A DNA stretch of 64,000 bases from an uncultured bacterium (GTDB taxonomy: Bacteria; Spirochaetota; B62-G9; DRHN01). How positions within the stretch are numbered: the stretch's first letter is position 1; each line of letters starts with the position of its first letter. The notes under the pieces are model-generated. The model was not told the DNA's origin and ran no database searches. It was given only the letters and a program-made list of their open reading frames with translations. The DNA is taken from the NCBI GenBank assembly GCA_965603595.1, contig CBFDDP010000002.1, forward strand, positions 847-64,846. The letters are read 5' to 3'. Positions 13,986-60,715 of the stretch are shown here, piece by piece. A program made the position numbers and the translations under genes.

Positions 13986-14041
13986 GTCGGGCAGTCCTGG
14001 TATTGCGCATGTGAGTGCTTTCATCGATGGAGGGACCATAC

Positions 14042-15202
14042 ATGAAGAAAGTTCCTATCACCACTATTTATGAAAAGAACAGGGTTATCGAAAATATCAT
14101 TGACGCCATGCTTACGAGGAATAAATTCCTGCTTCTGGGTCACCGCAATCCCGATGAAGACTGCATTGCCTCTATGGTTGCCTTCTCACTCCTTCTTGGA
14201 AAAATGTACAAGGATGCCGAGATCTGTCTCGGTGAGAAGGTGCACGAACACTTTCAGTATCTTTTTAATATCTGCCGATACAATTCAATCACCCTCGTCG
14301 ATGCATGCGAGAGCTTTGAAGACAGCATTGACACAATAGTCATATGCGATACGCCGAAACCTTCCATGATTGAGCGCAACCGCATGATTGAGAAGCTCTT
14401 TGAAGACCCGGCGGTACTAAAGATCGAAATCGATCACCATATCGGTGCCGACTCGACCTATATTGGTGATCAGGGCTACTGTCTGGTTACCGATGCCACC
14501 TCCTCGAGCGAGCTCGTTGGACATCTCGCTCTTAAAATGAGGAACCGACGGGGACTTGTTGATCAATTCCAGATCAACGAGGTCCTTTCCCGCAATGTCA
14601 TACTTGCCATACTCACCGGAATTATCGGTGATACCAACATGGGTCAGTTTCTTAAATCACGGCGGGAGAAGAAGTTATACCACATTTTCAGTTCTATGCT
14701 CAACAACCTCCTCGCTGAGGAGACGGTCAAAGAATCAAACTTCAAGAACATGGACGAAATCTTTAAGGAATTGCACCGACTCTCGACAAAGGAAGACCAC
14801 AGTTATCGATACTTTATGGACCGGAAGCAGTTTTCCCAGTCCATCGGCTGGGTCGCACTCGACGAGGGCGATACGGAAAAACTCTTTCGCAATGTAGACG
14901 AGCAAACGGTGGTAAATGTTGTACGGGCGGTTGCAAATGAACTTGCTGAGGAAAGCGGCAGACTGAGTCTCGTTTCCTATTACGATAAACCCGGGCTTTC
15001 AGACCTTATACAGTTCCGCATGCGGAGGAGCCAGGCATACAAGAAGTACGATTTGCGGGAGATGCTCACGCTCTTCTCCATAGAGAACGGAGGCGGCCAT
15101 GAGGGGGCTATCGGATTCCGCCTCCCCCGTTCTGAAATCGATGATTACAATCTGTATGTGCAGGGCCTCATTGGAGGGCTTGAGAAGGTGCTCCCCGCAT
15201 AA
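14042..15202 (+). CDS. DHH/DHHA1-family phosphoesterase (NrnA-like nanoRNase / pAp phosphatase type).
   Basis: Motifs HRNPDEDC, ICDT and EIDHHIG, with a C-terminal DHHA1-like GGGH (ENGGGHEGA). The ATG at 14042 is preceded by GGAGGGA. The ORF extends to 14015. Confidence 0.7.
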   Translation: MKKVPITTIYEKNRVIENIIDAMLTRNKFLLLGHRNPDEDCIASMVAFSLLLGKMYKDAEICLGEKVHEHFQYLFNICRYNSITLVDACESFEDSIDTIVICDTPKPSMIERNRMIEKLFEDPAVLKIEIDHHIGADSTYIGDQGYCLVTDATSSSELVGHLALKMRNRRGLVDQFQINEVLSRNVILAILTGIIGDTNMGQFLKSRREKKLYHIFSSMLNNLLAEETVKESNFKNMDEIFKELHRLSTKEDHSYRYFMDRKQFSQSIGWVALDEGDTEKLFRNVDEQTVVNVVRAVANELAEESGRLSLVSYYDKPGLSDLIQFRMRRSQAYKKYDLREMLTLFSIENGGGHEGAIGFRLPRSEIDDYNLYVQGLIGGLEKVLPA

Positions 15203-29105: not shown

Positions 29106-30191
29106 TCATTGTACGCGGCTGAGGCTTCGCTCTATCCACGCATCGGCCATTCCCTCATAACCCTCTGCATCTTTGCTCAACACGAAATATTTCACCGCCT
29201 CCTCATAATCTCTGAGATAGTAGGAGCACTGTCCGGCGTGGAATGCTGCGGACCCTCGCTCCTCCATGGTCAGATCACCCCTGCTGAGTATGGATCTGAA
29301 ATTGTCGAGTGCCCTGCCGTAGTTGCCCGTGTAGAAGTTGCTTCTCAGATTCTGTTCGATAAGCTCACAGGGTGACAATGTTCCCGCCGCCTTCCTTGGC
29401 TCTTCCACCTCCGGTTTTTCCCTGTCCTCAGGACCGGTTTCCTGCACAGGCTCCATCTCGAGCTTCCTCACGACTGTCTCACCCTCTTCGGCCTCGATGA
29501 GAAATGGTCCTGAGATGACATTTCTACCGGGAATGAGGGTTTTGTTCTCCACACCGAGCCTGTTCAGAGCGGTAATGGCCATGAACACTGGCGTGTTTTC
29601 CCGGACCCTTAATTCGAAACGCCCATCATCCCCAGTAACAGTTGCATAGGGCTCTGTATCATCCACCTTTGTGATGGGTATCATGCCTGTATAGAGATTG
29701 TAGGTATACTCATCGGTTGCCGGTATGAATTGAATGGAAAGCCGGTGCTCACCATTTTCATGATCGAGTTCTGTTATGTTAAAGGTGTCGATCACCTCGG
29801 GCAAGGGTGAAAAGTCAATAGGGCTGGTTGTGGTGTTTAGATACGGTATGAGGTCGGGGAACTCCTCAGTTACAGTGACAGCGTAGTAGAACCGGCCGTC
29901 AACCCCGGGAGAATCTTTCAGTGGGATTTCCCCGGCACTGATTTCACCGATCAGGGTCGAACGCTCAATATCCGCCTGCGATATGATCGGCTTATCAGAT
30001 CTGTACACGCGATACTGCAGCTTAGGGTCTTCAATTGGTTCGAAACTCAGGCTCACAAAGCCCTCCTCGTACTTCGGGCTTATGAGTGTGACAAACCTGT
30101 CTTTGGTGACCAATCCCTCATGGCCGATAAGCGGCAGTGCTGCAATGGAGAAGAATATGCCGATGAGCTGTAATACCCTTGGAATTTTCAT
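29106..30191 (-). CDS. Hypothetical secreted/membrane-anchored protein with a TPR-like C-terminus.
   Basis: N-terminal hydrophobic segment and no recognisable catalytic motif. The ORF is long with good codon periodicity. Confidence 0.45.
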   Translation of the reverse strand: MKIPRVLQLIGIFFSIAALPLIGHEGLVTKDRFVTLISPKYEEGFVSLSFEPIEDPKLQYRVYRSDKPIISQADIERSTLIGEISAGEIPLKDSPGVDGRFYYAVTVTEEFPDLIPYLNTTTSPIDFSPLPEVIDTFNITELDHENGEHRLSIQFIPATDEYTYNLYTGMIPITKVDDTEPYATVTGDDGRFELRVRENTPVFMAITALNRLGVENKTLIPGRNVISGPFLIEAEEGETVVRKLEMEPVQETGPEDREKPEVEEPRKAAGTLSPCELIEQNLRSNFYTGNYGRALDNFRSILSRGDLTMEERGSAAFHAGQCSYYLRDYEEAVKYFVLSKDAEGYEGMADAWIERSLSRVQ

Positions 30192-35984: not shown

Positions 35985-38381
35985 ATGAAGATCAACACTA
36001 AGAAAAAAATCAACCTCAGTGCAGAAAGCAAGAACCTGATCAAGGTGCGTGACTTTGTGGTGAAGTATGGCCGCAAGATGGGCCTTCTCCCAAAGCAGGT
36101 GAGTGAAGTGAAGCTTGCGGTCGACGAGGCGGTGTCGAACATCATCCGCCATGCCTACGGTGGTGGGAGGGGTAATTTCCAGGTCGAGATGACAAAATTC
36201 GAAAGTGCCGTGGAATTGAAGATCATTGATCAGGGAGTTGAGTTTGACTGGTATTCAGTCCTGGAACCCGACCTTTACAAGTATGTGGAGACGAGGCGAA
36301 AGGGTGGCCTGGGGATCTGGCTCATAAAGAAACTCATCGATGAGGTGGAGTATAAGAGGCTCGAGAACAACAATATCCTTACCATGAAGATATACATCGA
36401 TGAGGTGGTCGCCAAAGAGTTCGCCCGTGAGGTCCGGGGGCGGTTCAGCATCAGGATACGCTATGCGGTCTACGCGCTTGGTATGGTTGGTATCATAGTA
36501 TTAACGGCCTTTATTATTGGAAGCAGGGTGCAGAGCACCATTATTGAGAAAAGGTTGAATGAACGCTACGAATCGGTAACCAGACAGGTTTCGGAAACTG
36601 CGTCCGACCTCATTCTCGACGGCGATGATCTTGCCCTTGCAAACCTGGCAGTCTCGGTCCGCCAGAATGACAACACCCTTGGGTATGTCATTGTCACGGA
36701 TACGGATAATCTGATACTTGCCCACACCGATGTGAAGCGAATATACACAACCTACAATAAGCCCTCCGGGATTTTGGATAATGCAGTGTTCGAACTGAGG
36801 GAAGTCGAGTACAGAAGTGCAGGGAGTACGGCCAGATTCAAGCACTTTGCTGCACGTGTGGTATATGTAAACACTGCAGAGGGACAGTCGAGAAATCTCG
36901 GGGAAGTGCACATCGGAATCGACCAGAATGTGTTCCTCCAGAGAATCGACGCTGCAAAGGAAAACACAAGGGTGGCCCTCATAGCCGTGTTCTTTGGAGG
37001 TACGACCATCATCGGGGTCATCCTTATCGGCTCCACCTTCATCTCTCCAATCACCAAGCTTGCCGATGAAATCTCCCGTATCAGTGCCACCGGGCAGGCC
37101 CGTGAGCTGAGCTTCGCAACGAGGAACCCGGAGGTAGGCAGGATTGGTCAGGCTTTCAACGAGATCATGCGCAATCTGCGCATGACGCAGGGTCAGCTTA
37201 CCGACCAGACACGTCTGCGGCGCGAACTGCAGCTCGCTCAGGAGATACAGAATGCCCTTCTGCCCAAGCAGGTGCCGACCCTGGATGGGTTTGACATAGA
37301 TGCTGCCTACCGGGCCGCTCTGGAGGTGGGTGGTGACTACTACGATTTCTTCGAGGTGGACAAAAATTCCATCGGCATCGTGGTTGCCGACGTTTCTGGT
37401 AAGGGAATCGGAAGTTCGATGGTCATGACCATGATCAGGACTTCCATGCGTCTGGAGGCACGCGGGAACAAACGTGCGTCCTTTGTGCTCGACAAGGTGA
37501 ACCGTATCGCAGTGGAGGATATCAAAAAGGGCATGTACGTCACCATGTACTATGTAATCCTCGATGCCAAGAAGCGCATCGTGAATTACGCAAGTGCCGG
37601 GCACAACCCCATGATTATTTACCGGAGTGATACGAAAACGGTGAGCTTCCTCAATCCCGTGGGTATAGCTGTGGGCATCGACCTGGGGAACACCGACGAG
37701 TTCAAGAAGCGTATCACCAGTGAGAAGCTGAAGCTGAAAAAGGGGGATCTGTTATTTATCTATACGGACGGCATCACCGAGGCGATGGACGAGAAACGCG
37801 AACAGTTTGGGGAGAATCGGCTCATTGACTTCATACAGCAATACGCGCATCTGCCCGCAAGTGAGTTCAAGGCGAAGCTGAACGAGGAGCTCACCGCCTT
37901 TACCAAGGGCTATCCGCAGAGCGATGATATCACCTTCGTTGTCATCAAGCTCGAGATGAGCCCGGCCGAGATCAGGCAGGCCAAGATACTCCGTCTCTTT
38001 GAGCTGCTCGAGGAGGAAGTTCCCCTTGACGATGTCCTCGAGCAGACTGGTATCTCCCATGAGGAGTATCAGGAACTCAATGAGAAACGGGAGCAGCTCG
38101 GTGACGAGGCGATCAAGGTTGTGGCGGAGGAGGAAAAGGAGGAGGCAGAGCTGGGCCATGCGTCGCACGAACAGGTCAAGCTGCTTACCCAGATCATACG
38201 GCAGAATCCCGAGTACGGGGTGACGCGGTTGACAAACCTCCTGAACAGCGAGGAGTACGGGTCACAGGGCGTGAAGGAGAGTGTGGTCAAGAGGGAGCTC
38301 GTGCGTATGAAGCTCGATAGTCGGGAGAAGCGCGAGGCCTTTTCCAAGCGTGAGCTTCCCACCTGGGCTTCCTACAAGTAG
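35985..38381 (+). CDS. Fusion protein: RsbW/SpoIIAB-like anti-sigma Ser kinase domain (HATPase_c_2), TM, sensor, TM, HAMP, PP2C/SpoIIE Ser phosphatase, and a C-terminal acidic helical extension.
   Basis: N-terminus AVDEAVSNIIRHAY...GGLGIWLIKKLIDEVEY (kinase). Two TM helices flanking a ~150-aa segment. HAMP (TKLADEISRISATGQ...). PP2C motifs DVSGKGIGSSMVMT and YTDGITEAMDE. 798 aa. Confidence 0.8.
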   Translation: MKINTKKKINLSAESKNLIKVRDFVVKYGRKMGLLPKQVSEVKLAVDEAVSNIIRHAYGGGRGNFQVEMTKFESAVELKIIDQGVEFDWYSVLEPDLYKYVETRRKGGLGIWLIKKLIDEVEYKRLENNNILTMKIYIDEVVAKEFAREVRGRFSIRIRYAVYALGMVGIIVLTAFIIGSRVQSTIIEKRLNERYESVTRQVSETASDLILDGDDLALANLAVSVRQNDNTLGYVIVTDTDNLILAHTDVKRIYTTYNKPSGILDNAVFELREVEYRSAGSTARFKHFAARVVYVNTAEGQSRNLGEVHIGIDQNVFLQRIDAAKENTRVALIAVFFGGTTIIGVILIGSTFISPITKLADEISRISATGQARELSFATRNPEVGRIGQAFNEIMRNLRMTQGQLTDQTRLRRELQLAQEIQNALLPKQVPTLDGFDIDAAYRAALEVGGDYYDFFEVDKNSIGIVVADVSGKGIGSSMVMTMIRTSMRLEARGNKRASFVLDKVNRIAVEDIKKGMYVTMYYVILDAKKRIVNYASAGHNPMIIYRSDTKTVSFLNPVGIAVGIDLGNTDEFKKRITSEKLKLKKGDLLFIYTDGITEAMDEKREQFGENRLIDFIQQYAHLPASEFKAKLNEELTAFTKGYPQSDDITFVVIKLEMSPAEIRQAKILRLFELLEEEVPLDDVLEQTGISHEEYQELNEKREQLGDEAIKVVAEEEKEEAELGHASHEQVKLLTQIIRQNPEYGVTRLTNLLNSEEYGSQGVKESVVKRELVRMKLDSREKREAFSKRELPTWASYK

Positions 38382-38640: not shown

Positions 38641-39351
38641 ATGCCAGATATTCAGGTTGATGTCAGATACGACGGTGACAGCGATGAGATAGCCATTATC
38701 GATGCGAAGGGTTTCATCGACACCACCACTGCTCCCGAGCTCGAGAAGAAGCTCGAAGAGCAGTTGGCACTTAATAAATACAGGATAGTCGTGAATCTTG
38801 AAAATATCGACTACGTGAGCAGTGCAGGATGGGGTGTTTTCGTTTCTGAGATCCGGGAAATTCGGGAGAACAGCGGTGACCTCGTTCTTGTGAACATGTC
38901 TCCCGATGTGTATGATGTCTATGAGCTCATGGAGTTTTCATCCATACTGAAGTCCTACGACAGTGTGGAAGAGGCTATTGCAGGTTTCACAGGTAAGGAG
39001 TTCAAGAAGGAGGAGCCGAAACTTGCACCTGGGCCAGCTCTCCCACCGAGGCCTGAGCCTGTACAACCCCAAGTGCAACCAGAGCAGCAGGCGCCTGCCC
39101 AGACCGCACAGCCACAGGCTACATCGGGTACCGATGTCTATTCCTATGCTCAGAGTGAACTCGGCAAACGTATCATACATATCATCGTCGATAATCCCTA
39201 CTACAAAGTGAAGGAGATCGCAAAGGCACTAAGGCTCCCCAACTACGGTGGTATGAAGGTGGGCGGTGGTGCCGTTAAAAAAGAATTGAAGAGCATGGGA
39301 TTGTCAGACAAACAGCAGCGTTTTGAGCTCGCTTTGAAGGGACGCGGCTAA
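38641..39351 (+). CDS. STAS-domain anti-sigma-factor antagonist (SpoIIAA/RsbV-like) with a Pro/Gln-rich linker and an extra ~60-aa C-terminal domain (possible helix-turn-helix).
   Basis: STAS fold with the phosphorylatable Ser motif IDYVSSAGWG. Linker PGPALPPRPEPVQPQVQPEQQAPAQTAQPQ. C-terminus RIIHIIVDNPYYKVKEIAKALRLP. Confidence 0.8.
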   Translation: MPDIQVDVRYDGDSDEIAIIDAKGFIDTTTAPELEKKLEEQLALNKYRIVVNLENIDYVSSAGWGVFVSEIREIRENSGDLVLVNMSPDVYDVYELMEFSSILKSYDSVEEAIAGFTGKEFKKEEPKLAPGPALPPRPEPVQPQVQPEQQAPAQTAQPQATSGTDVYSYAQSELGKRIIHIIVDNPYYKVKEIAKALRLPNYGGMKVGGGAVKKELKSMGLSDKQQRFELALKGRG

Positions 39352-39415: not shown

Positions 39416-41647
39416 ATGGAAACCAAGGTGGCCGATTACCTGATAACAGTTGAAAAGGTAACCAGGGAACTCTCACAGATAGAGTCCATAAAACAGCTGC
39501 CACAGTATATTGCAAGTCAGCTTTCATCCGCATTGAATGATAACGTTCAATATGCCTTCGTTGACAGGGAATCAAACAATATCTATGAATCCTCCCACAT
39601 TGACAGCAATGTCAAGAATTTACTGCCCTTTTTCCTGGACGACAGGTTTACGGACGAGTTGAAGAAGCTCGACTGGAGCGTGGTTGACTCGAGGGGGGTG
39701 CGTTTTCTTTTCAAGGAGGTTTTTGGCCACGAATCAGACCTGGAGGCATCCTTTCTCATCCTGCCAAAGAAACGGGGTGACCTGATCGTCTACTTCTCTG
39801 TGCTCTGGGGGAGCAATAAACTCGAGAAGATCGACAAGGAGGAGGTCGATTTCATTTCCTCTGTGTGCAGTGCTGCTGAACTGAAGATTGTGAGCCTGCT
39901 TGGCGTTGCCAATCAGGCAGGAGACAGGGATTTAAGGCGCAAGGCCTTTGAGCTGAAAGAAATTTCCGGTATGGGCGTCGATCTAACCTCACTTGGCAAG
40001 GAGGATTTTTTTGGCAGTTTTCTCCTGAACGTCATGGGGAGAGCGCTCAGTAAGACGGCTGTTATCTTCCTTTCGACCAATGAAAACAACACTGAGTATG
40101 CACCTGTCGCGTCCAGAGGTGTGCTCAAGAAATTTGTGGAGAATATCCATTTCACAGATAAAAACTCATTCATTCAGGAGCTGAGAAAGCGGCAGGAAGC
40201 AATGGCTATACCGGATATGCTTGACATACTGGACGATGAGGAGAAAGACAGCTTCATCAAACTCGAGGCTGCTGTTCTCGTCCCCCTCATCTCTAAGAAT
40301 GGATTGATCGGCCTGCTCACACTCGGCGAACGTATGAATATGCAGCCCTACTCTGAAAAGGTCTATGACTCTATTAAGATCTATAGTAACCAGATGGTGA
40401 TGGCGATCGAAAACTCCAAACTTTCCAACCTTCGCTATGCCTTTTCGCGTTATGTTTCCCATCAGCTCGTCGACGGCATTCTTTCCGATCTGGATAAGGT
40501 TAAGCTAGGAGGAGAGCGGCGGAAGGTCACCGTTCTCTTTGCAGATATTCGAGGGTTCACCTCGATGGCCGAGAAGATGAAGCCTGAGGAGGTTGTAGAC
40601 CTGCTCAACACCTATCTATCGGGACTGACCGATATCGTATTCAAGTTCGAGGGAACCCTCGACAAGTATATTGGCGACTGCCTTATGGCTGTGTTCGGCA
40701 CACCCATCTCTCACTACAATGATGCGGAGCGGGCGACCATAACCGCCATAGAGATGCAGAAATATGTGGAGGAGATCAACGCCAAGAGGGAAAAGAAAGG
40801 CCTCCCCGAGGTGGCGATAGGTGTCGGGCTCAACACCGGTCATGCCATATCAGGAAATATGGGCTCGGTAGACCGGATGGACCTTACGGTCATCGGTGAT
40901 GTAGTCAATATTGCCTCAAGGCTTGAAGGGATTGCCGGTCGCGGCCAGATACTGGCCACCCGTGAAGTGTATGAAGAGGTGAAGTATGTTGTAGACGCCG
41001 AGTTTCTGGACAGTGTGACGGTGAAGGGTAGAGCACAGGCCGTTGACGTGTATGAGATCAAGGGTCTTATGGCAGGGAGGTTCCTGAGTGTGCTCGAACG
41101 GGTGGAACCCTACAAGGTTGGCCACTATCTCAATATTGCCGGGGATGCAGAGCTCATAGGCCAGAAGCTTGGATTTCCCATGGAAGAACTCATCAAACTC
41201 CGTTCCGCAATCCTGCTTATCGATATCGGCAGAATCGGACTGAGTGAGGGTATATTCAATAAGAAAGATAAGTTAACCCCCGAAGAGTTTGAAGTGGTGA
41301 AGAGTCATGTCATTCGGGGTGCTGAGTATGTTGAAAAGAAGCTGAATCTCTTCAAGGAGGGTATTGAACTCGTGAAGTATCATCACGAGTTTTACGACGG
41401 CAGTGGGTATCCCGACGGTCTCAAGGGTGAGGATATCCCACTCTGGGCACGGATCGTTTCAGTAGTCGATTCTTACTATGCCATGATCTCCAGCCGGCCA
41501 TTTAGAGAGCCCCTCAAAGAGGAGCAGGCCATAGCCATTCTCAATGATGAGAAGGGCAAGAAATACGATCCGAAAATAGTTGACGTCTATACTGGAATCC
41601 TTAGAAAACGGCTGCACGAAAACGTCGAAGCGGGTACCCCTGCATGA
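39416..41647 (+). CDS. GAF-like N-terminal region, class III adenylate/guanylate cyclase catalytic domain, and HD-GYP phosphodiesterase domain.
   Basis: Cyclase motifs VTVLFADIRGFT, KYIGDCLMAVFG and VGLNTGHAISGNMGS. HD-GYP motifs (H..HHEFYDGSGYPDGL). The ATG at 39416 is in frame with a GTG at 39407. Confidence 0.85.
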   Translation: METKVADYLITVEKVTRELSQIESIKQLPQYIASQLSSALNDNVQYAFVDRESNNIYESSHIDSNVKNLLPFFLDDRFTDELKKLDWSVVDSRGVRFLFKEVFGHESDLEASFLILPKKRGDLIVYFSVLWGSNKLEKIDKEEVDFISSVCSAAELKIVSLLGVANQAGDRDLRRKAFELKEISGMGVDLTSLGKEDFFGSFLLNVMGRALSKTAVIFLSTNENNTEYAPVASRGVLKKFVENIHFTDKNSFIQELRKRQEAMAIPDMLDILDDEEKDSFIKLEAAVLVPLISKNGLIGLLTLGERMNMQPYSEKVYDSIKIYSNQMVMAIENSKLSNLRYAFSRYVSHQLVDGILSDLDKVKLGGERRKVTVLFADIRGFTSMAEKMKPEEVVDLLNTYLSGLTDIVFKFEGTLDKYIGDCLMAVFGTPISHYNDAERATITAIEMQKYVEEINAKREKKGLPEVAIGVGLNTGHAISGNMGSVDRMDLTVIGDVVNIASRLEGIAGRGQILATREVYEEVKYVVDAEFLDSVTVKGRAQAVDVYEIKGLMAGRFLSVLERVEPYKVGHYLNIAGDAELIGQKLGFPMEELIKLRSAILLIDIGRIGLSEGIFNKKDKLTPEEFEVVKSHVIRGAEYVEKKLNLFKEGIELVKYHHEFYDGSGYPDGLKGEDIPLWARIVSVVDSYYAMISSRPFREPLKEEQAIAILNDEKGKKYDPKIVDVYTGILRKRLHENVEAGTPA

Positions 41648-42843
41648 GTGAAATCTCCAAAAAGCTGGTCGTTTCTAGCGATCTGGAGAAGAACCTCATC
41701 TTTCAGAGTCTCCTCAGGATGAAGGAGCCGATCGAACTGGAGCTTGGCGGATTTCGTTATCCGGGTTTCGTGAAACGCTATGATAGGAAGAGCATTCTCC
41801 TCGACATGCAGACCCCTCTGAAAATGGATGTTGGGGGGCCTGTTCGCGCCCATTTTATCTTCCACAACAGTTACCATTATTTTGACACCGCCGCGCAGAA
41901 GAAGGATGATAGCCATATTCAGCTTCTGCTCCCCGAGAAGATCAACAGGAATATGCTCCGCGCCAATGACCGTATTGATGGGCTGAACCGTGTGTTCATG
42001 CGATTCAAGATCCTGATTCATTCAAAGCGAAAAGAACTCTTGAGCTCCTCTCTCCTAGATGAACGAGTAATCATGCAGGAGGTGAGTAAGCCAAAGCCCG
42101 CCGTGGACAAGATACTTGCCGGGATCAAGCGGCTCGTCTCCGATTTTGCCCAGAACTTTCAGGTCAAAATATTCAAAGAGGATGAAAAACTTTCCTTTGA
42201 TGAGAGTATTCTCAAGCAGTCCGGGAAGATCTTTCTTATCTATGACTCTTTTGAGGACAACATCGAGGGCAGAAGGCATTTTGAGCAGGAGGTCATTGGC
42301 ATCAGTGATGCATATGCGCTCCTGATTCATGCAGGAGAATCGAGAAAGAACGCTGAAAGTAAACTGCTAGATCTGCTTCAGCAGAAGAGAAACGGCAATG
42401 TCTTTTCTGAGAGTCTCATACCGCTCATGCTGGAAGGCGAGGTTGTGGGATATATCCGCCTGTTCAACGACATGGATTATCATCGAAGCATAAAACCCGC
42501 ATTCGCTCTTCGCGCGGCAAAGTATGCCACTGTTCTCGTGGAAGCTCTTGTGAAGTATGATTACTTCACTCTCGAAAGCGGGGAGGAATTCGATGTACCT
42601 GTTATCAATGTGAGTGCGGGAGGACTCCTGTTCAAGCTCGACAGGTCTGCGGTAAAACAGTATCTTATTCTCCGCACCACGCTCATGATGACGATTCAAT
42701 TTACCACACATCTGGTTGAGGCGAGCGGTGTTATACACCGCATCGATAAGGAACGGTCCGAATTCGGCGTTAAATTTTTTATGATAAACGAGGTTGACAG
42801 CCAGTTTATCGATGATGTGGTGCATGGCAAGGTAAAGGTGTAG
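41644..42843 (+). CDS. PilZ-domain protein (YcgR-like N-terminal domain plus a C-terminal PilZ with a DxSxGG-like motif).
   Basis: The C-terminus VINVSAGGLLFKL matches the (D/N)xSxGG c-di-GMP-binding motif. An upstream RxxxR is not obvious. The ATGA overlaps the stop of the cyclase/HD-GYP gene. Confidence 0.6.
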   Translation: MSEISKKLVVSSDLEKNLIFQSLLRMKEPIELELGGFRYPGFVKRYDRKSILLDMQTPLKMDVGGPVRAHFIFHNSYHYFDTAAQKKDDSHIQLLLPEKINRNMLRANDRIDGLNRVFMRFKILIHSKRKELLSSSLLDERVIMQEVSKPKPAVDKILAGIKRLVSDFAQNFQVKIFKEDEKLSFDESILKQSGKIFLIYDSFEDNIEGRRHFEQEVIGISDAYALLIHAGESRKNAESKLLDLLQQKRNGNVFSESLIPLMLEGEVVGYIRLFNDMDYHRSIKPAFALRAAKYATVLVEALVKYDYFTLESGEEFDVPVINVSAGGLLFKLDRSAVKQYLILRTTLMMTIQFTTHLVEASGVIHRIDKERSEFGVKFFMINEVDSQFIDDVVHGKVKV

Positions 42844-42867: not shown

Positions 42868-43326
42868 ATGGCAGCAAAAAATGGACAGGAGATGAACAGT
42901 GTAATCGGTGAGGGTTCCATCTTCGAGGGGAAGTTTTACATCAACGGTTCTCTGCAGATAGATGGAAGGTTCGAGGGGGATATTCGTACTGATGAACATG
43001 TTTTGGTCGGTGAAACAGGCAAGGTTAAAACCGATATTGTTGCGCGGAGAGTCATCGTCGCCGGTACAGTCATAGGCAATATTGAGGCTGATGAAGAGGT
43101 GCATCTGCTTACCACGGGACGTGCGCTCGGGAATATCCGTGCTCCAAAAGTGAACGTTGAAGACGGCGCTATCATAGAGGGTGAGGTATCGATCAGCGCA
43201 GGTCAGAAGAAAGATGTGAAGCGGGTAATCGAAGAGTCCTTCTCGGCAGGACCGAAACTGAACGACATGCTCAAGGGACAGAAACGCATCAGTGAAGAGG
43301 AGAAGGAAACACCGCAGGATGCATGA
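42868..43326 (+). CDS. Bactofilin (polymer-forming cytoskeletal protein, DUF583).
   Basis: Repetitive beta-helical pattern (GxVxGxIxA...) typical of bactofilins, with an N-terminal short tail. 152 aa. Confidence 0.8.
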   Translation: MAAKNGQEMNSVIGEGSIFEGKFYINGSLQIDGRFEGDIRTDEHVLVGETGKVKTDIVARRVIVAGTVIGNIEADEEVHLLTTGRALGNIRAPKVNVEDGAIIEGEVSISAGQKKDVKRVIEESFSAGPKLNDMLKGQKRISEEEKETPQDA

Positions 43327-46778: not shown

Positions 46779-47612
46779 ATGGACAGTTATTCGGAGAAAA
46801 TTGATCAGGCGCTGCATTTTCTGGAGGAACAGGCGGTTGGCGATGTGCAAAACGCCATGATTCTCGGCTCCGGGCTGGGTGGGATTGCCGATGAGGTCCT
46901 GGAGGGGATTGTTATGCCTTATGCTGAAATTCCGGGTTTTCCCGTCGCGACCATACCGGGACACCGCGGCGAGGCGATTTTCGGTAAACTGGGTGGTAAA
47001 CCGGTACTTATTTTCAGCGGGAGATTTCATTTCTATCAGGGATTTTCATTACAAGAAGTCACCCTCCCCGTACGGGTGGCGGCCCGGCTCGGCGTGAAGA
47101 ACATGATCATCACCAATGCCTGCGGGGGAATCAACGATGCATTGAATCCAGGTGATATCATGATCATCAGGGACCATATCAATCTCATGGGAAGCAATCC
47201 ACTCATCGGTATCGATACGGGTACCTTCGGGACCCCCTTTATCGACATGAGTGACCCCTACGACGGTGAACTACGAGAAGTTGTGCACGAGCTCGCGTTA
47301 AAAAAGCCTGAGATCGGTGAGCTCAGGGAGGGAGTGTATGTGGCCGTGACCGGTCCGAGCTATGAGACAAAGGCTGAAATTTCCTTTTTTAAACAGGTCG
47401 GAGCGGATGCTGTGGGCATGTCGACAGTACCCGAAGTGATCGTGTGCCGACAGGAGGGCATCAGGGTCATCGGTATATCGGCTGTGTCCAACATGGCGGC
47501 GGGTATACAAAAGGCAGCACTGAGCCATCAGAAAGTACTCGACACGACGGCAAAGATGAGAGCCCGTCTTATTCTTCTGGTCAAGGAACTGCTCGAACAT
47601 GTCCTCACCTGA
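46779..47612 (+). CDS. Purine nucleoside phosphorylase of the PNP/MTAP (trimeric) family.
   Basis: The GSGLGG phosphate-binding loop, ITNACGG and MSTVPE motifs. 277 aa. Confidence 0.75.
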   Translation: MDSYSEKIDQALHFLEEQAVGDVQNAMILGSGLGGIADEVLEGIVMPYAEIPGFPVATIPGHRGEAIFGKLGGKPVLIFSGRFHFYQGFSLQEVTLPVRVAARLGVKNMIITNACGGINDALNPGDIMIIRDHINLMGSNPLIGIDTGTFGTPFIDMSDPYDGELREVVHELALKKPEIGELREGVYVAVTGPSYETKAEISFFKQVGADAVGMSTVPEVIVCRQEGIRVIGISAVSNMAAGIQKAALSHQKVLDTTAKMRARLILLVKELLEHVLT

Positions 47613-50049
47613 AACGGACCCAATGAAAGACCTGTTCAGAGAAGAGGCCATTACCGCCATGCGTGAGGAGATCCGCAGTTCCCGAGGGCAGGAAGTTCTT
47701 TTCTTCGGGTGGATGGATTTTCAAAACAGGGTAGACCGGGTGGAGGTTATTGCCCGGGGCAACGATGAAAGCGTGGGGCTTCCGCTCGAGAGGAGCTATC
47801 TTCCCGATGTCATCATACACAACCATCCCGCTGACAGTGTGACACCCTCCGAGCAGGATATCCGCATATCCTCTCACCTTGCCGACCGCGGTGTGGGGTT
47901 CGTCATCGTCAATAGCTCCTGCAGCGATGCATACGTGGTCGTGGAGCCTGTGGAGAAAAGGGAGCGTACGCCTCTTGACGCAGATGAACTCGCCGCATGG
48001 GTCACAGAAGGCGGCCCCTTCAGCTCTGCTCTGGAAAACTTCGAAGAGCGTGAAGGCCAGAAGGAGATGATCGCACACATATGTGATGCCTTTAACGGGG
48101 ATGCAAGGGCCTTAATAGAGGCAGGAACCGGCATCGGCAAATCGCTCGCCTATCTTATACCCGCGGTCCACTGGTCGCTGACCAATAATGAGAAGGTTGT
48201 TATCTCCACCAATACAATTAATCTGCAGGAGCAGCTGCTCTACAAGGACATACCTGACCTACACTCTGTGATGGACGAGGATTTTTCCTATATCCTTATG
48301 AAGGGACGGGGCAACTACATCTGCTTCAACAGGCTGGACGAGGCGCGTCAGGATCTCTTCTCTCTCATCGATGAGGAGGAACTGCATCAGTTCAATGCAA
48401 TTGTGGACTGGCTGAACACAGCCGAAGAGGAGAGCCTCTCACATCTCCCCTTCATTCCCAAACCCTCCCTCTGGGAAAAGATCAATTCGCAGTCCGGTAC
48501 CTGTGTCGGTGGCAGATGCGCGTATTTCAGTAGATGCCCGGTCAACAGGATCAGGCGGGATGCAGCGCGGGCACATGTTCTCGTTACCAACCACCATTAC
48601 CTGCTGGCCGACGCGCAGCTTGGCGAGGGCAGTGCGTCTCTTCTCCCCTCCTACAGGCGGGTCATTTTCGATGAGGCGCACAACCTGGAGGATTCGGCAA
48701 CTTCCTTTTTTACGAGAATGGTGAAACTCTCCTCGACCTTAAAACTGATGGGCCGTATCTATTCCGGGGCACGGAAGAGCAGGGGATATCTGGTATTTCT
48801 TCAGAAGAAAAAAAGCCTCTCCGACAGTGATACGTTGAAGCGCCTCATGGCTGCCACGGTGGAGGTACGCTCCCTCCTGTTTGACATGTTTGAGAAGCTG
48901 GGGGAGTTTTTCTCGCTCCATACACCGTCAAGCGGAAATGATCGAAGACCCGTGATCGAGATCAACGAGGAGGTAAAAAACAACCCTTACTGGACGCAGG
49001 ATCTTCTCCCGTCCATAGGCCGCTTCTACAGGGGATGCACACAGCTTGCCGGCGACCTGGTCGATCTGCGTCAGATGCTCGATACGAAAACCGATGACAT
49101 GGCCGGACGACAGGTGGACGGTCTCGTTATGGGCCTCATGGAGGCAGCCCATACAATCGATTTTTTCCTCGGCGAGGGCGAAGAGCGATACGTACGGTGG
49201 ATTGAGAAAAAGGCTGAGATAGGGATGGTGGTTGCCCCTGTAGAAATCGGGGATTCATTGCAGGATCTGGTATTTCACAGAATGCGAAGTGCCATTCTGA
49301 CCTCAGCGACTCTCACCGTCGGAGGTAGTTTCCAATTCCTGAAGGACAGGCTTTCTATGGAGGGGACCGATATTGAGGTAAGCATTCCGTCCTCATTCGA
49401 GTATAACCGTCAGATGAAGGTGCTCATTCCCAGCGATGTGGCAGAGCCCGGACATCCCCGCTGTGCAGATGACATCAGCAGGGCAATTCTGGGTATCCTG
49501 CAGAGGACCCGGGGAAGGGCATTTGTGCTTTTTACGTCCTACAAGATGCTCGAGGTCACCCACAACATGATCGGTGATGCCCTGAGAGATATGGGATGCA
49601 CGGTATTCAGGCAGGGGTCGGACTCCAGGAGAAATCTCCTCGATCATTTCAAGGCTGATATACACTCCGTTCTCTTTGGAACCGTGAGTTTCTGGGAGGG
49701 GGTCGATGCCCCCGGTCGTACACTCGAGTGTGTTATCATTACGAAACTTCCTTTCAAAGTACCGACCGAACCGATCATCAAGGCCCGTTCGGGGAAGATA
49801 CTTCAGCAGGGCGGCAATCCCTTTCTCGATTATCAGGTTCCCCTTGCCGTGATCAAGCTGCGGCAGGGGGTCGGCCGTTTGATCAGAAACCGCAGTGACC
49901 GGGGAATTATTGTCATACTGGACCCCCGAATTCTTCTCAAGAAATACGGTTCTATCTTTCTCGATTCCATTCCCACCTCCAACGTATTTCAGGGAACACT
50001 GCAGGGCGTTCTCGAGCAGACTGAAGGCTTCATCGGCATTACTCCTTGA
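47599..50049 (+). CDS. dinG: DinG/Rad3-family Fe-S DNA helicase with an N-terminal RadC-like JAB/MPN domain.
   Basis: The N-terminal HNHPADSVTPSEQD fits the RadC/JAMM HxHx7Sx2D motif. Walker A GTGIGKS, DEAH box DEAH, and an Fe-S Cys cluster (C..CVGGRC..C). 816 aa. Confidence 0.8.
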   Translation: MSSPETDPMKDLFREEAITAMREEIRSSRGQEVLFFGWMDFQNRVDRVEVIARGNDESVGLPLERSYLPDVIIHNHPADSVTPSEQDIRISSHLADRGVGFVIVNSSCSDAYVVVEPVEKRERTPLDADELAAWVTEGGPFSSALENFEEREGQKEMIAHICDAFNGDARALIEAGTGIGKSLAYLIPAVHWSLTNNEKVVISTNTINLQEQLLYKDIPDLHSVMDEDFSYILMKGRGNYICFNRLDEARQDLFSLIDEEELHQFNAIVDWLNTAEEESLSHLPFIPKPSLWEKINSQSGTCVGGRCAYFSRCPVNRIRRDAARAHVLVTNHHYLLADAQLGEGSASLLPSYRRVIFDEAHNLEDSATSFFTRMVKLSSTLKLMGRIYSGARKSRGYLVFLQKKKSLSDSDTLKRLMAATVEVRSLLFDMFEKLGEFFSLHTPSSGNDRRPVIEINEEVKNNPYWTQDLLPSIGRFYRGCTQLAGDLVDLRQMLDTKTDDMAGRQVDGLVMGLMEAAHTIDFFLGEGEERYVRWIEKKAEIGMVVAPVEIGDSLQDLVFHRMRSAILTSATLTVGGSFQFLKDRLSMEGTDIEVSIPSSFEYNRQMKVLIPSDVAEPGHPRCADDISRAILGILQRTRGRAFVLFTSYKMLEVTHNMIGDALRDMGCTVFRQGSDSRRNLLDHFKADIHSVLFGTVSFWEGVDAPGRTLECVIITKLPFKVPTEPIIKARSGKILQQGGNPFLDYQVPLAVIKLRQGVGRLIRNRSDRGIIVILDPRILLKKYGSIFLDSIPTSNVFQGTLQGVLEQTEGFIGITP

Positions 50050-56665: not shown

Positions 56666-59320
56666 ATGGCCATGCAGACCCCACTGATGGAACAGTACAC
56701 CCGGATCAAGCGGGAAAACGATGACTCCGTACTCCTCTTCAGACTGGGTGATTTCTACGAGATGTTCGAGAAGGATGCGGTGTACGCCTCGAGGGTCCTC
56801 AACATTACACTCACCAACCGAAACGGCATTCCAATGTGCGGTTTTCCCTTTCATGCTGCTGACACCTACATTGCAAAACTGCTGGGAGAGGGCAACAGAA
56901 TAGCTATTTGTGAACAGACAGAAGACCCCTCTCATGCGCGTGGTATTGTTAAACGGGAGGTCGTGGAGATTATTTCACCGGGTATTATTACCGATCCTGA
57001 GCTTCTGGACAACAAGAGCGCGAACTGCATCGCAGCGCTTCTCGGTACTGAGAGTAAGGGAGAACGGAAACTTGCAGTCGCATCGCTGGATGTTTCCACC
57101 GGTGAGTTTGTGTCGAGTCTTATCCGCGATGGAGATGTGATTGACCATGTGCTGAATGAAATCGAGGAGAACGGCATACGGGAAATCATCTATCCCGAAT
57201 CCCTCGATGAAGGGTCACTGCTGTCTGGAATTTTGGGCGGGGTCAGGAAGATGTATGCCGATGTGGTATTCCGCTCGAGGGAGGATCATCTCTTCAACGC
57301 TACGGATGCAGAGAGGTCACTTAAAAAGCATTATGCAGTTAAGAATACGGATGTATTCGAGCTGCGAGATAAGCTGGAAGTCACGGCCTGTGGTTCGCTG
57401 CTCTCATATGTGATGCAAAATGTCAAGCAGGAACTGAGGCATGTGCAGTGGGTGAGAGGTATTCAAAGAGAGCGGGCGCTGTTCATTGACAATGCCACGA
57501 AAAAACATCTGGAACTCACGCAGAATCAAACAGACGGCGGTAGTGCAGGGACTCTTCTCCACATCCTGGATCGAACCCAAACGGCAATGGGTGGACGCCT
57601 CATGCGCAGGAATCTGAGCAGCCCCTTCGGTACGAAAGAGCAGATTCAGGAACGGCTGCAAAAGGTATCCTTTTTCTATAAAAGAGGAGAAGCGGCGTCA
57701 TCAGCCAGGTCCTACCTTGCATGCATACTGGATATCGAACGCATCGTGTCCAAACTCTCGGTGGCAAAGGGGAATGCCCGTGATGCAATCGGATTGAAGG
57801 ATTCACTTCGTGCTGCTGCCGGGATGCGGGATGGGTTGACTGCTGTGGGTACGGAGCTCTTCCAGAGGGAACTGGAGGGGCTGGGCAATTTCAGTGGAAT
57901 CATCGACCTCATCGAAAAAGCAATCGATGCTGCACCGCCATTGAGTGTACATGAGGGGCGGATAATTCGGGATGGCTATGATGAACAGCTCGACAGGTAT
58001 CGAAGGCTTGGGCGTGAGAACAGGGAATGGATAAACAGGTATCAGCTGGAGGAACAGCGTCGACATGGCATTGCATCACTGAAGGTGCGGTACAACAAGA
58101 TCATTGGCTATTATATCGAGGTCACAAAACCAAACCTGCACCTGATACCCGCACACTATATCAAGAAACAGACCCTCGTCAACGCGGAGCGTTTTACGAC
58201 CGAGGAACTGGAGGAACATGAGACGCTTCTCATGGAGGCCAGGGACAAATCGGACACACTTGAGTACGAACTTTTCGAAAATATTCGAAGGGAAATCCTG
58301 CAGCATATGGAAAGGCTGTATCGGGCCGCGGAGGTGATTGCTTCTGTAGATGTGTGTGTAACTCTTGCAACTGGGGCCAAGGATAACGATTATACCGAGC
58401 CGGAAATAGTAGAGGAAAACATCATTGACATTGAAGGGGGGAGGCATCCCGTTGTGGAGGCCCTCGGTGAGGAGGCATTCATTGCCAATGACCTTGTCCT
58501 CAACGACAGTGACCGTCGTATCATGATTCTCACCGGACCAAATATGGCCGGTAAATCGACCTTCCTCAGACAGGCGGCCCTCATTATCATAATGGCGCAT
58601 ATGGGAGGTTATGTGCCGGCCAGACGAGCCCGCATAGGACTTGTCGATCGTGTATTTTCCCGAATCGGTGCCACTGACCGGCTCATCAAGGGCGAATCCA
58701 CCTTTCTTGTGGAGATGATCGAAACTTCGCGCATCCTCCACTATGCAACGGAGCGAAGCTTCATCATAATGGATGAGATCGGGCGTGGCACATCCACCTA
58801 TGACGGCCTTTCGATCGCCTGGGCAGTCCTCGAGTATCTGCTCGACGATACGGTTGGGGCGAAAGTACTGTTCGCCACTCATTATCATGAAATTACGGCC
58901 TTGAGAGATCGCTACGGTATTGTCAATTGCAATGTGACTGTGAAAGAGTGGAACAACAATGTGATTTTCCTGCGAAAAATCGTGCCGGGATCAGCCTCAA
59001 AAAGCTACGGTATAGAGGTCGCACGAATGGCGGGTATCCCTGACAGTGTAATCGAAAGGGCGAAATCCATTCTCAGCAGACTGGAAACAAATTTTGGAGG
59101 ACATATCCCCCTCTTTGTGGGAGAGAGAACCGATAGACCCGGCGGTCTTCAAGGGGATAGGGAAATCACCGATAGGGCGAAGCCCGATACACAGCTCGAC
59201 CTCTTTCCCTCCCCATATGAGATACTCATGAAGGAACTGGGGGAGGTTGATATAGAAAGTATAACGCCTCTTGAGGCGCTCAATATTCTCGATCGGCTGA
59301 AAAGAAGCATCTCAACTTGA
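56666..59320 (+). CDS. mutS: DNA mismatch repair protein MutS.
   Basis: Mismatch-binding N-terminus (GDFYEMF), Walker A GPNMAGKST, DEIGRGTST, and a C-terminal HTH. 884 aa. Confidence 0.95.
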   Translation: MAMQTPLMEQYTRIKRENDDSVLLFRLGDFYEMFEKDAVYASRVLNITLTNRNGIPMCGFPFHAADTYIAKLLGEGNRIAICEQTEDPSHARGIVKREVVEIISPGIITDPELLDNKSANCIAALLGTESKGERKLAVASLDVSTGEFVSSLIRDGDVIDHVLNEIEENGIREIIYPESLDEGSLLSGILGGVRKMYADVVFRSREDHLFNATDAERSLKKHYAVKNTDVFELRDKLEVTACGSLLSYVMQNVKQELRHVQWVRGIQRERALFIDNATKKHLELTQNQTDGGSAGTLLHILDRTQTAMGGRLMRRNLSSPFGTKEQIQERLQKVSFFYKRGEAASSARSYLACILDIERIVSKLSVAKGNARDAIGLKDSLRAAAGMRDGLTAVGTELFQRELEGLGNFSGIIDLIEKAIDAAPPLSVHEGRIIRDGYDEQLDRYRRLGRENREWINRYQLEEQRRHGIASLKVRYNKIIGYYIEVTKPNLHLIPAHYIKKQTLVNAERFTTEELEEHETLLMEARDKSDTLEYELFENIRREILQHMERLYRAAEVIASVDVCVTLATGAKDNDYTEPEIVEENIIDIEGGRHPVVEALGEEAFIANDLVLNDSDRRIMILTGPNMAGKSTFLRQAALIIIMAHMGGYVPARRARIGLVDRVFSRIGATDRLIKGESTFLVEMIETSRILHYATERSFIIMDEIGRGTSTYDGLSIAWAVLEYLLDDTVGAKVLFATHYHEITALRDRYGIVNCNVTVKEWNNNVIFLRKIVPGSASKSYGIEVARMAGIPDSVIERAKSILSRLETNFGGHIPLFVGERTDRPGGLQGDREITDRAKPDTQLDLFPSPYEILMKELGEVDIESITPLEALNILDRLKRSIST

Positions 59321-60715
59321 GGGTATTATGGCGGGTTTTTTAATTTCCACCCTTTTCAGGAGACGGTTAAACTGTGCTCCGCTGTAGAGCTCCAGTGCGC
59401 GTCCCTCGACGAAGTTTAATGCCTCGTCGGTGAACTCCGTATTCGTTATGCAGATCCCAAGCTTCGCTTTCGTTTCCTTCACTTTTTCGTAGAACTCACG
59501 TATTGCCAGCTGACCTACCTTTGAGGTTCCTCTGAAGAATTTGAAAAGAATGGTCATGTTTCTGTGCTTGTAAACTGCCTGTGCGAATATCTCAACAGAT
59601 GAGTCGCGCGGGCTGCCAACACGTATGATCACCACATTTTCGGCGAACTTAACCGCAATATGTCGGCACACTTTCAAAAAGCTGGACTGGGGGGCTGTCA
59701 TATATGCCTTGAGCACATTCGAGTACTTCATCTTTTCATACTTTTCCACCTTGGCACGAACGTCCCTGTAGTTCGGCGAACGAGCGAGGATTCGCTCCCA
59801 CTGTTTGAGGGCATTATGAATATCGCCATGTGCGAGATACACTTCCGCAATCTCATATATGATTTCAAACTTCTTGTCTCTCTGCAGCCCCTCTGATTTC
59901 AGTGCAAGTGTGAGCACCTTCAGTGCATCCGCATACTTCTTGTATGCACTGAGTAGCTTACCTGCTTCCATGAGGCTTACGGCTGTGAACCGCGAGTCCA
60001 CCCTCGCTTTGAGATAGTGTTTCAGTGCATCGTTGTGATTATCAAACTCATTGTGCACCTCGGCGAGATAAAAATGAACTTCGGGGTCCTGTGGGTTCAT
60101 GTTGTGAGCAAGCTTTAATACCCGGAGCGCATCAGCATATTTCTTCAGCTGATAAAAGATGATACCAATCTCCTTGAGTACTGTATAGTTGTCTCTCTGA
60201 ATGGAGAGGGCTTTCTTGAAGTACTTCAGGGCCTCGTTTAGCGCTTTGCGCTGTACTTCCAGCCTTCCGAGCTCTATATAGGGTTCTCCATCATCGGGGT
60301 CCAGCTTTCTTATGACCGTGTATGCCTTGTAGGCTTCATCAACATTACCGAGCTTTTTGTGGCAATCGGCAAGGAGTCCGTATATCTCCTTCTGGTCACT
60401 ATCTTCTCTGCCGCGGCTGTAGGTGAGCAGGTTCTGAAGCTGTACAACTGCCTCGCTATAATTACCGATCTCCATGAGCAGATGGCCAGCCTGTTTCCGC
60501 TTTTCCACGTCAAAGGGGTCTTTCCTGATCATTGCGAGCAATGTCTTTGCTGCATGTTCCTTTGAACCCGTCGCTATGCTCTTATGAATTGAGGATTTCA
60601 GTTTAACTTTTCTGAGGAGACGTATGACGTAGAAGGCACCAAGAAAGATGGCTGTGAAGATTGCAATAAAAACTATGGTAGGTAGCATGTTTCGTCCCAA
60701 CCCTATTGTAAGCAA
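59312..60715 (-). CDS. Membrane-anchored TPR-repeat protein with a C-terminal domain weakly suggestive of a Mrr-like restriction-endonuclease fold.
   Basis: N-terminal TM helix and 7 or more TPR repeats. The C-terminal ~130 aa (..VEIFAQAVYKH..KLGICITNTEFTDEA..) has a low-specificity, Mrr_cat-like pattern. Convergent overlap with mutS. Confidence 0.5.
   Translation of the reverse strand: MLTIGLGRNMLPTIVFIAIFTAIFLGAFYVIRLLRKVKLKSSIHKSIATGSKEHAAKTLLAMIRKDPFDVEKRKQAGHLLMEIGNYSEAVVQLQNLLTYSRGREDSDQKEIYGLLADCHKKLGNVDEAYKAYTVIRKLDPDDGEPYIELGRLEVQRKALNEALKYFKKALSIQRDNYTVLKEIGIIFYQLKKYADALRVLKLAHNMNPQDPEVHFYLAEVHNEFDNHNDALKHYLKARVDSRFTAVSLMEAGKLLSAYKKYADALKVLTLALKSEGLQRDKKFEIIYEIAEVYLAHGDIHNALKQWERILARSPNYRDVRAKVEKYEKMKYSNVLKAYMTAPQSSFLKVCRHIAVKFAENVVIIRVGSPRDSSVEIFAQAVYKHRNMTILFKFFRGTSKVGQLAIREFYEKVKETKAKLGICITNTEFTDEALNFVEGRALELYSGAQFNRLLKRVEIKKPAIIPSS

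Follow-up and report, generated by a model that had tools for sequence, protein, structure and literature searches.

Does one gene of an uncultured spirochaete encode an enzyme that makes one second messenger and breaks another? The question was raised by a plus-strand gene at 39416..41647 of contig CBFDDP010000002.1, numbered within the 64,000-nucleotide (nt) stretch that was analysed (here called the window). The original prediction took its product for a single polypeptide joining an adenylate/guanylate cyclase domain to an HD-GYP cyclic diguanylate (c-di-GMP) phosphodiesterase domain, with the motifs of both intact. The combination of domains was borne out. A single open reading frame (ORF) on the plus strand (39407/39416..41647 in the ORF list) encoded 743 residues plus a stop, and the domain order was GAF-GAF, signalling helix, class III cyclase and HD-GYP. 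In the 743-residue protein, Pfam matched Guanylate_cyc to residues 369–546 (E 8e-27, 94.4 bits, cut-off 21.9), HD_5 (PF13487) to residues 560–721 (E 7e-34, 117 bits, cut-off 27.2), HD (PF01966, 45 bits) and, weakly, GAF_3 to residues 209–333, indicating that the composite protein is real and far beyond chance. The motif strings FADIRGFT, KYIGD, NTG and HHEFYDGSGYPDGL were all found in the translation. The ATG at 39416 was the likely start, because a GGTGAG-like ribosome-binding site lay 5′ of it (the sequence directly upstream is GGGTGAGAAGC) and the 743-residue homologues shared the start ME.K. The gene and its parts were as follows.

39416..41647, plus strand: whole gene, GAF-GAF/predicted class IIIb adenylate cyclase/degenerate HD-GYP (ORF, Pfam, and about 85 homologues of the same length and architecture).
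39416..39904, plus strand: GAF-A-like domain, residues 1–163 (AlphaFold2 (AF2) model and Foldseek matches to tandem GAFs).
39905..39997, plus strand: low-confidence helical linker, residues 164–194 (predicted local distance difference test (pLDDT) below 50 in both AF2 models).
39998..40354, plus strand: GAF-B, residues 195–313 (Pfam GAF_3, E 8e-6, 26.7 bits on the isolated region; fold matches).
40355..40501, plus strand: long signalling helix and short helix into the cyclase, residues 314–362 (AF2 helices 314–346 and 349–357).
40502..41071, plus strand: predicted class IIIb adenylate cyclase catalytic domain, residues 363–552 (PF00211, 94 bits; phmmer; Foldseek).
41072..41644, plus strand: degenerate HD-GYP domain (“ID-GYP”), residues 553–743 (PF13487, 117 bits; alignments to V-cGAP3, PmGH, PA4781 and DvhD).
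41219..41224, plus strand: codons for I602-D603, which replace the HD dyad (translation ILLIDIGRI).
41381..41413, plus strand: HHEFYDGSGYP motif, residues 656–666, intact (family residue census).

The full-length AF2 model, built from a 55-sequence alignment (pLDDT 81, predicted template modelling (pTM) score 0.53), was read domain by domain.

The cyclase half of the prediction was supported. The best solved relatives of this domain were Pseudomonas aeruginosa CyaB (3r5g, the top phmmer match, E 3e-39), Synechocystis Cya2 (2w01) and Spirulina CyaC, and Foldseek aligned the AF2 domain to 3r5g and 2w01 with TM-scores of 0.88–0.89 and root-mean-square deviations of 1.6–1.7. Identity over the catalytic domain was 39% with CyaB (Foldseek, TM 0.88) and 35–36% with CyaC (1wc0/1wc1). 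The metal aspartates D377 (FADIRGFT) and D421 (KYIGD) aligned to the equivalent aspartates of CyaB and Cya2, and the transition-state pair N498 and R502 (VVNIASR) was present. When the substrate-specifying residues were compared with those of characterised class III cyclases, the pair K417/T491 matched CyaB (DKFVGD/YTIIG) and CyaC, which is the ATP type of class IIIb. The match to Cya2 had suggested a guanylate cyclase, and this identity was ruled out by the Glu/Gly that Cya2 has where K417/T491 stand. All six catalytic residues are thus the same as in CyaB and CyaC. They were also kept in 72–78 of 78 full-length relatives from uncultured Spirochaetota (35–99% identity): D377 in 76, K417 in 78, D421 in 78, T491 in 77, N498 in 77 and R502 in 72. 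From these residues we infer a competent class IIIb adenylate cyclase that would make cAMP from ATP. The setting differs from that of CyaB, whose sensor is a membrane MASE2 domain and which lacks a C-terminal domain; the present protein has a cytosolic tandem GAF as its sensor and, in addition, a C-terminal HD-GYP-derived domain.

The HD-GYP motifs, also called intact at first, were not: the earlier quotation had covered the HHE..GYP half only. The segment LLHDIGK of V-cGAP3, PmGH and PA4781 reads LLIDIGR here. Residues of PmGH (numbering from PMC4159591 and PMC12943098) were mapped onto the alignment of the 78 family members. H221, the HD histidine, corresponded to I602 (Ile 70, Met 3, Val 2, Tyr 2, Leu 1 and His 0 of 78), and K225, the Lys of HDxGK, to R606 (0/78 Lys). 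D308 fell on Y688, three residues after the last metal-binding Asp (0/78 Asp), its partner R192 on N573 (0/78 Arg) and E185 on Y566 (Glu in 1/78). In PmGH the substitutions H221A, K225A and D308A each essentially abolish activity (Bellini 2014, PMC4159591), and the M-H iron pair, the probable source of the nucleophile, is bridged by E185 (Bellini et al., PMC4159591). Neither an error of sequencing nor a recent mutation explains the loss of the HD histidine, since Ile, Met, Val, Tyr or Leu is found there in 78/78 relatives down to 35% identity. The 46 unfused HD-GYP domains collected for comparison have His there without exception, and the nearest unfused relatives all keep HD. A check of the two HD ligands therefore gave a divided result, the Asp being kept (D603) and the His replaced by Ile. 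Loss of hydrolysis is proposed because the HD His, the Glu that bridges the M-H pair, and the Lys and Asp essential in PmGH are all replaced. With three PmGH-essential residues replaced family-wide, the idea that one messenger is made and another broken is unlikely in its simple form. Automatic annotation calls these proteins “c-di-GMP phosphodiesterase class II”, which is probably wrong.

The rest of the site was well kept. The equivalents of PmGH H189, H250, H276, H277 and D305 are H570, H631, H656, H657 and D685, and these five ligands outside the dyad were conserved in 74–78 of the 78 relatives (counting D/E at position 685). D603, H657, G664-Y665-P666 and R694 were found in 78/78, and H631, H656 and R697 in 77/78. 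Within HHEFYDGSGYP, E658 and G662 were invariant and D661 was present in 75/78. The RxY[K/R] motif was present as RPFR, its arginines being R694 and R697. The KPG motif reads KKD here and KK[E/G/D] in the family (K 75/78, P 10/78, G 24/78). Sequence matches to the active HD-GYP structures V-cGAP3, PmGH and PA4781 ranged from E 1e-25 (PmGH) to 7.5e-30 (V-cGAP3). Thus the domain shares with PmGH (4mcw), V-cGAP3 (5z7c) and PA4781 (4r8z) its fold family, HHExxDGxGYP, the H189, H250 and D305 equivalents and RxY[K/R], and differs from them in HD His to Ile, K225 to Arg, D308 to Tyr, E185 to Tyr and KPG to KKD.

Such retention could mean a truly bifunctional enzyme, in which cAMP is made and the ligands that are left form a rearranged binuclear metal centre still able to hydrolyse c-di-GMP. 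Six of the seven core ligands (H570, D603, H631, H656, H657 and D685) and the GYP are near-invariant, the HD_5 score is well over its threshold, and some substitutions are tolerated in RpfG-like proteins according to the literature. A substitute ligand could also come from an extra His at position 655 (HHHE), found in 43/78 members, or from the His at position 688 of 34/78; the window protein, however, has Tyr, not His, at both. Continued hydrolysis would further have to do without the equivalents of H221, K225 and D308 in 78/78 sequences, each essential in PmGH, and without the Glu that bridges the nucleophile-bearing metal pair. Distant members even lose HHE and GYP yet keep the cyclase, the usual pattern when catalysis by a domain is not under selection. 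A bifunctional enzyme is, on this evidence, unlikely.

Hydrolysis of another substrate (3′3′-cGAMP, pGpG or the adjacent cAMP), by an active site re-tuned through the family-specific substitutions, was also considered. The best match among solved HD-GYP structures was the cGAMP-specific V-cGAP3 (E 7.5e-30), cGAMP is a substrate of some HD-GYPs, and changes in the RxxK and KPG regions alter specificity; of the two, KPG is changed here. However, V-cGAP3 and other cGAMP-active enzymes keep HD and the Lys, the RPFR motif is of the c-di-GMP type, and the loss of essential catalytic residues speaks against any metal-dependent hydrolysis. We know of no HD-GYP that cleaves cAMP. A change of substrate is accordingly rated very improbable.

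A closer model was found among HD-GYPs that bind without cutting. The degenerate HD-GYP domain of Desulfovibrio vulgaris DvhD (9RBZ/9RC0) needs no metal to bind c-di-GMP, leaves the nucleotide uncut and, as an isolated domain, dimerises in its presence (PMC13090378). DvhD was among the sequence matches of the ID-GYP domain, and in the alignment (PMC13090378 numbering) seven of its eight canonical-site contacts were matched here, by Y566, L620, Y665, M690, R694, F696 and E712; the sole unmatched contact was K582 (F625 here). PA2572 (“YN-GYP”), HnoD and ECA3548 are further degenerate, regulatory HD-GYPs. These four proteins have lost several ligands (HD to SQ, YN, SE or HT; HHE to MNE, QLE or ANE), whereas only the HD His is lost here. 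No nucleotide cyclase is joined to any of them; all have kept a signalling role, as is proposed for the present domain. By analogy with DvhD, the ID-GYP domain is probably a c-di-GMP sensing or dimerising module.

From the observed architecture, residue inventory, conservation and gene linkage we infer a cAMP product, loss of hydrolysis, binding of c-di-GMP and allosteric coupling: with a probability of about 0.55, the protein is an adenylate cyclase whose non-hydrolysing, c-di-GMP-binding ID-GYP domain tunes the pairing of its cyclase domains. The active sites of class III cyclases span the dimer interface, so a C-terminal domain with a c-di-GMP-dependent dimer state would be a natural regulator of such an enzyme. 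The 743-residue protein would act as a soluble homodimer. A ligand signal from the tandem GAF would pass through the long signalling helix to the class IIIb catalytic domain, while the ID-GYP domain would bind c-di-GMP without turnover, possibly via one remaining metal. Binding would shift the dimer state of the ID-GYP domain, as in DvhD, and so tune the pairing of the two cyclase domains. cAMP synthesis would then be set by the c-di-GMP level together with the GAF ligand, and a kinase/phosphatase and STAS pair encoded upstream may add a phosphorylation-dependent input.

Several observations weigh against this proposal. Only one core metal ligand is missing here, against several in DvhD and PA2572, and the strict retention of the remaining His and Asp ligands points to continued selection for metal binding, which would also agree with a remodelled active site. 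RpfG-type proteins without “a key His” may still be active (Galperin and Chou), and R606 is a conservative swap for Lys. On the binding side, position 712 (the equivalent of DvhD E668) is variable in the family, and the second guanine could be bound less tightly because KPG is altered (KKD). Structural coupling cannot be read off the AF2 model, whose inter-domain geometry is unreliable (pTM 0.53). The retained ligands would also allow metal-dependent c-di-GMP binding. In favour of binding, EDTA-treated PmGH with the GYP-side Fe alone left still holds c-di-GMP (PMC4159591).

How the domain is kept in evolution bears on the same question. About 85 near-full-length homologues of ~743 residues had the same architecture; nearly all came from metagenomes, and the named ones were metagenome-assembled genomes (MAGs) of uncultured Spirochaetota. 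Mean pairwise identity in the family was 70% for the cyclase, 68% for the signalling-helix segment, 65% for the HD-GYP domain and 50–58% for the GAFs. Because it is nearly as conserved as the cyclase (65% vs 70%), the ID-GYP domain is functional and under selection, not decaying, but it is no canonical phosphodiesterase. The cyclase plus HD-GYP half was also searched against 1.8 billion representative proteins. Most matches in two stretches, candidates for cyclase and HD-GYP fusions, turned out to carry cyclases alone or HD-GYPs alone, in tandem, and only four 50%-identity clusters had the same domain order (P0070, P0121, P0122 and P0123). All four lacked the HD His (YD, LD and LD among them). 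In P0122 and P0123 part of HHE was also gone (FNE, FHE), and P0122 lacked the Tyr of GYP as well; both have a complete cyclase and an N-terminal receiver domain. In the reverse order, P0201 (589 residues) has an N-terminal region, an intact HD-GYP (LLHDIGK, QHHERYDGSGYP) and then a complete class III cyclase, so at least two independent joinings of these domains have taken place. P0201 would itself fit the idea of making one messenger and breaking the other.

A sub-branch of the family (50–55% identical) lost catalytic residues of the cyclase too. In P0076 and P0078 (loci L002 and L003), D377 is Gly and R502 is Gln, and in P0078 N498 is Asp, so that judged by these residues both enzyme domains look dead. 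Their ID-GYP was well kept, with an even higher HD_5 score, and no PilZ gene was adjacent. This pattern, a further point against the c-di-GMP-tuned cyclase, means that the C-terminal domain can have a role apart from cAMP synthesis. The domain could also be a docking or scaffold module that binds no nucleotide and places cAMP synthesis in a local complex, with GGDEF proteins or with the neighbouring PilZ or STAS protein as partners. Inactive HD-GYPs that work by protein-protein contacts are documented (RpfG, HnoD and PA2572), the GYP loop is invariant, and the gene is tightly linked to those of PilZ and STAS proteins; retention in P0076 and P0078 despite a degenerate cyclase points the same way. 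Pure docking, however, does not need the c-di-GMP contact residues R694, R697, Y665, Y566, L620, M690 and F696, all of which are conserved, and it leaves the retention of metal ligands unexplained. We regard a docking role without nucleotide as distinctly improbable. The c-di-GMP-tuned cyclase thus remains preferred, and in the literature search no description of a cyclase-HD-GYP fusion or of this architecture was found: the protein is a set of known parts, a GAF-GAF cyclase and a conserved ID-GYP, in a combination for which no published description was found.

The N-terminal ~340 residues had been called GAF-like, and the predicted fold supported this and refined it to GAF-GAF. A separate AF2 model of residues 1–345 (pLDDT 81) was compared by Foldseek, and its best matches were tandem GAF-A/GAF-B modules, with alignments spanning both halves (~370–400 columns). 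They included PDE2A (1mc0, E 3e-10), PDE5A and the cyanobacterial cyclase CyaB2 (1ykd). A tandem GAF from residue 1 to ~340 is therefore supported by the predicted fold. Matches to single GAFs included the cAMP-bound GAF of Lcd1 (5w10, “Lcd1 GAF domain in complex with cAMP ligand”). Pfam gave no match in residues 1–163, the GAF-A-like half; many homologues carry precomputed GAF matches in Pfam. The GAF-B loop LSTNENNTEY was near-invariant in the family and specific to it, and residues 314–362 aligned to the linker of a phytochrome-cyclase chimera (6fht). Like Anabaena CyaB1 and CyaB2 (1ykd), the protein has a tandem GAF regulatory module ahead of a class III cyclase. Identity with the GAFs of CyaB1/CyaB2 and PDE2A/PDE5A was only 11–14%, although the predicted fold aligned over both GAFs. 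Unlike CyaB1/CyaB2, it has no PAS domain, has its own LSTNENNTEY loop and has an extra C-terminal domain.

Candidate readers of the cAMP were present in the window. The two cNMP-binding GGDEF proteins reported at 12–14 kb were found there, with Pfam cNMP_binding and GGDEF domains in both ORFs.

12021–13004 and 13005–13985, plus strand: two tandem cNMP_binding-GGDEF genes, candidate cAMP readers (Pfam).

RGDEF stands in the first, whose cNMP cassette is less canonical; in the second, GGDEF is accompanied by an RERD I-site and a canonical cassette (FGEM..PRSAT). A loop from cAMP to c-di-GMP through these proteins is plausible by analogy. Lcd1 of Leptospira is a cAMP-activated GAF-GGDEF enzyme. 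Control of a GGDEF enzyme by a cyclic mononucleotide is described for XC_0250/XC_0249 of Xanthomonas (PMC3770947). What these systems have in common with the present one is a genome that encodes both a class III cyclase and a GGDEF protein that binds a cyclic mononucleotide. The Xanthomonas genes lie side by side and work through cGMP, whereas those of the window are 25 kb apart. The link of the cNMP-GGDEF genes to this cyclase is a conjecture from their co-occurrence at that distance in the 64-kb window. Directly after the GGDEF pair, a DHH-family protein is encoded at 14015–15202 (plus strand), with only a far sub-threshold NCBIfam match to NrnA; hydrolysis of pGpG or nanoRNA is a possible function.

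Taken to its full extent, the proposal is of a c-di-GMP-gated adenylate cyclase: a non-hydrolysing, perhaps single-metal HD-GYP receptor would control cyclase pairing and pass the signal from c-di-GMP to cAMP in one polypeptide, and with the cNMP-binding diguanylate cyclases it would close a two-messenger feedback loop with further inputs from the GAF ligand and STAS. This whole scheme is put forward tentatively, as possible but less likely than not. The links between cAMP and c-di-GMP that we know of act through transcription or lead from mononucleotide to dinucleotide through cNMP- or GAF-GGDEF enzymes; we neither know of nor found in the literature searched any description of a post-translational route by which c-di-GMP would act directly on cAMP synthesis. 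The family, conserved across many uncultured Spirochaetota, is a compact candidate for such a route and would be of high interest if c-di-GMP gates cAMP synthesis. If true, it would be a second, independent HD-GYP recruited as a receptor after DvhD, and, with most metal ligands kept, it could tell the residues needed for hydrolysis from those that suffice for binding.

Downstream, the cyclase stop overlaps the start of the next gene (ATGA), and a third gene follows closely.

41644..42843, plus strand: PilZ gene of the DUF1577/YcgR-GAZ type, putative c-di-GMP receptor (PilZ 24.1 bits, cut-off 22.5; DUF1577 18.5 bits, cut-off 25).
42868..43326, plus strand: bactofilin gene (PF04519, E 4e-27), 25 nt 3′ of the PilZ gene.

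The orthologue of the PilZ gene in L001 carries a precomputed PF07614 match. The product seemed at first to lack RxxxR next to NxSxxG. RxxxR (residues ~105–109) was kept in 9/9 orthologues, and (N/D)xSxxG (residues ~322–327) in 8/9, L008 having DIGVGG (Ser to Gly); the two motifs lie ~215 residues apart. In the YcgR-GAZ architecture PilZN is followed by a PilZ domain split by a GAF-like insert, and the member LIC_11920 binds c-di-GMP (PMC12943098); this insert separates the motifs and resolves the apparent lack. The order cyclase-PilZ-bactofilin was kept in 8/8 related loci with downstream sequence, and the three genes are probably co-transcribed. A scan of 33.5–47.8 kb for promoters and terminators gave no more sites than shuffled controls, so the operon limits follow from gene spacing alone. 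The PilZ-bactofilin order is conserved in related MAGs at 65–78% identity, a hint that an element of the cytoskeleton or of cell shape may be controlled by second messengers.

Upstream lie two genes of partner-switching type.

38641..39351, plus strand: STAS anti-sigma-antagonist-like protein with a C-terminal extension (PF01740, E 2e-17; TIGR00377, 74 bits), 65 nt 5′ of the cyclase gene.
35985..38381, plus strand: RsbW-like kinase-sCache-HAMP-PP2C (SpoIIE) fusion (Pfam; sub-threshold NCBIfam matches to RsbW, SiaA and RssB).

The latter product (798 residues) has an N-terminal RsbW-like HATPase_c_2, an sCache_3_2 with a predicted membrane segment, HAMP and SpoIIE/PP2C. In P. aeruginosa the partner-switching pair of HptB-HsbR-HsbA-HsbD controls a diguanylate cyclase. 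In the SiaABCD system of the same species, the partner SiaC binds and activates its cyclase, according to PMC8457831. As in SiaABCD and HsbRAD, a PP2C phosphatase, an RsbW-type kinase and a STAS-like substrate are encoded beside a second-messenger cyclase; unlike them, the output here would be a class III adenylate cyclase, not GGDEF, and one protein unites the kinase and the phosphatase with sCache and HAMP. The STAS gene adjoined the cyclase gene in 7/8 loci with upstream sequence. There the whole 18-kb region was syntenic, housekeeping genes included, and the kinase/phosphatase and STAS pair was missing in CP070841 and in distant members, so a functional link to the cyclase is only suggestive. 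The STAS protein and the kinase/phosphatase fusion share a C-terminal module of ~60 residues (regions 38990–39351 and 38100–38381, plus strand; 34% identity, pairwise E 5e-9) that matched no Pfam family and gave only a very weak HTH_24-like match; perhaps this tail serves both partner-switching components in docking or DNA binding.

Three other genes of the window were noted. A 360-residue ORF at 29106–30191 (minus strand), between a trypsin-PDZ protease gene and metK, had no Pfam match at E 1e-3. At 59312–60715 (minus strand) a TPR-repeat protein carries a C-terminal Mrr_cat restriction-endonuclease-like domain. An 816-residue protein at 47599–50049 (plus strand) joins an N-terminal RadC-like JAB domain to a DinG/XPD-type helicase (DEAD_2, Helicase_C_2), an unusual pairing.

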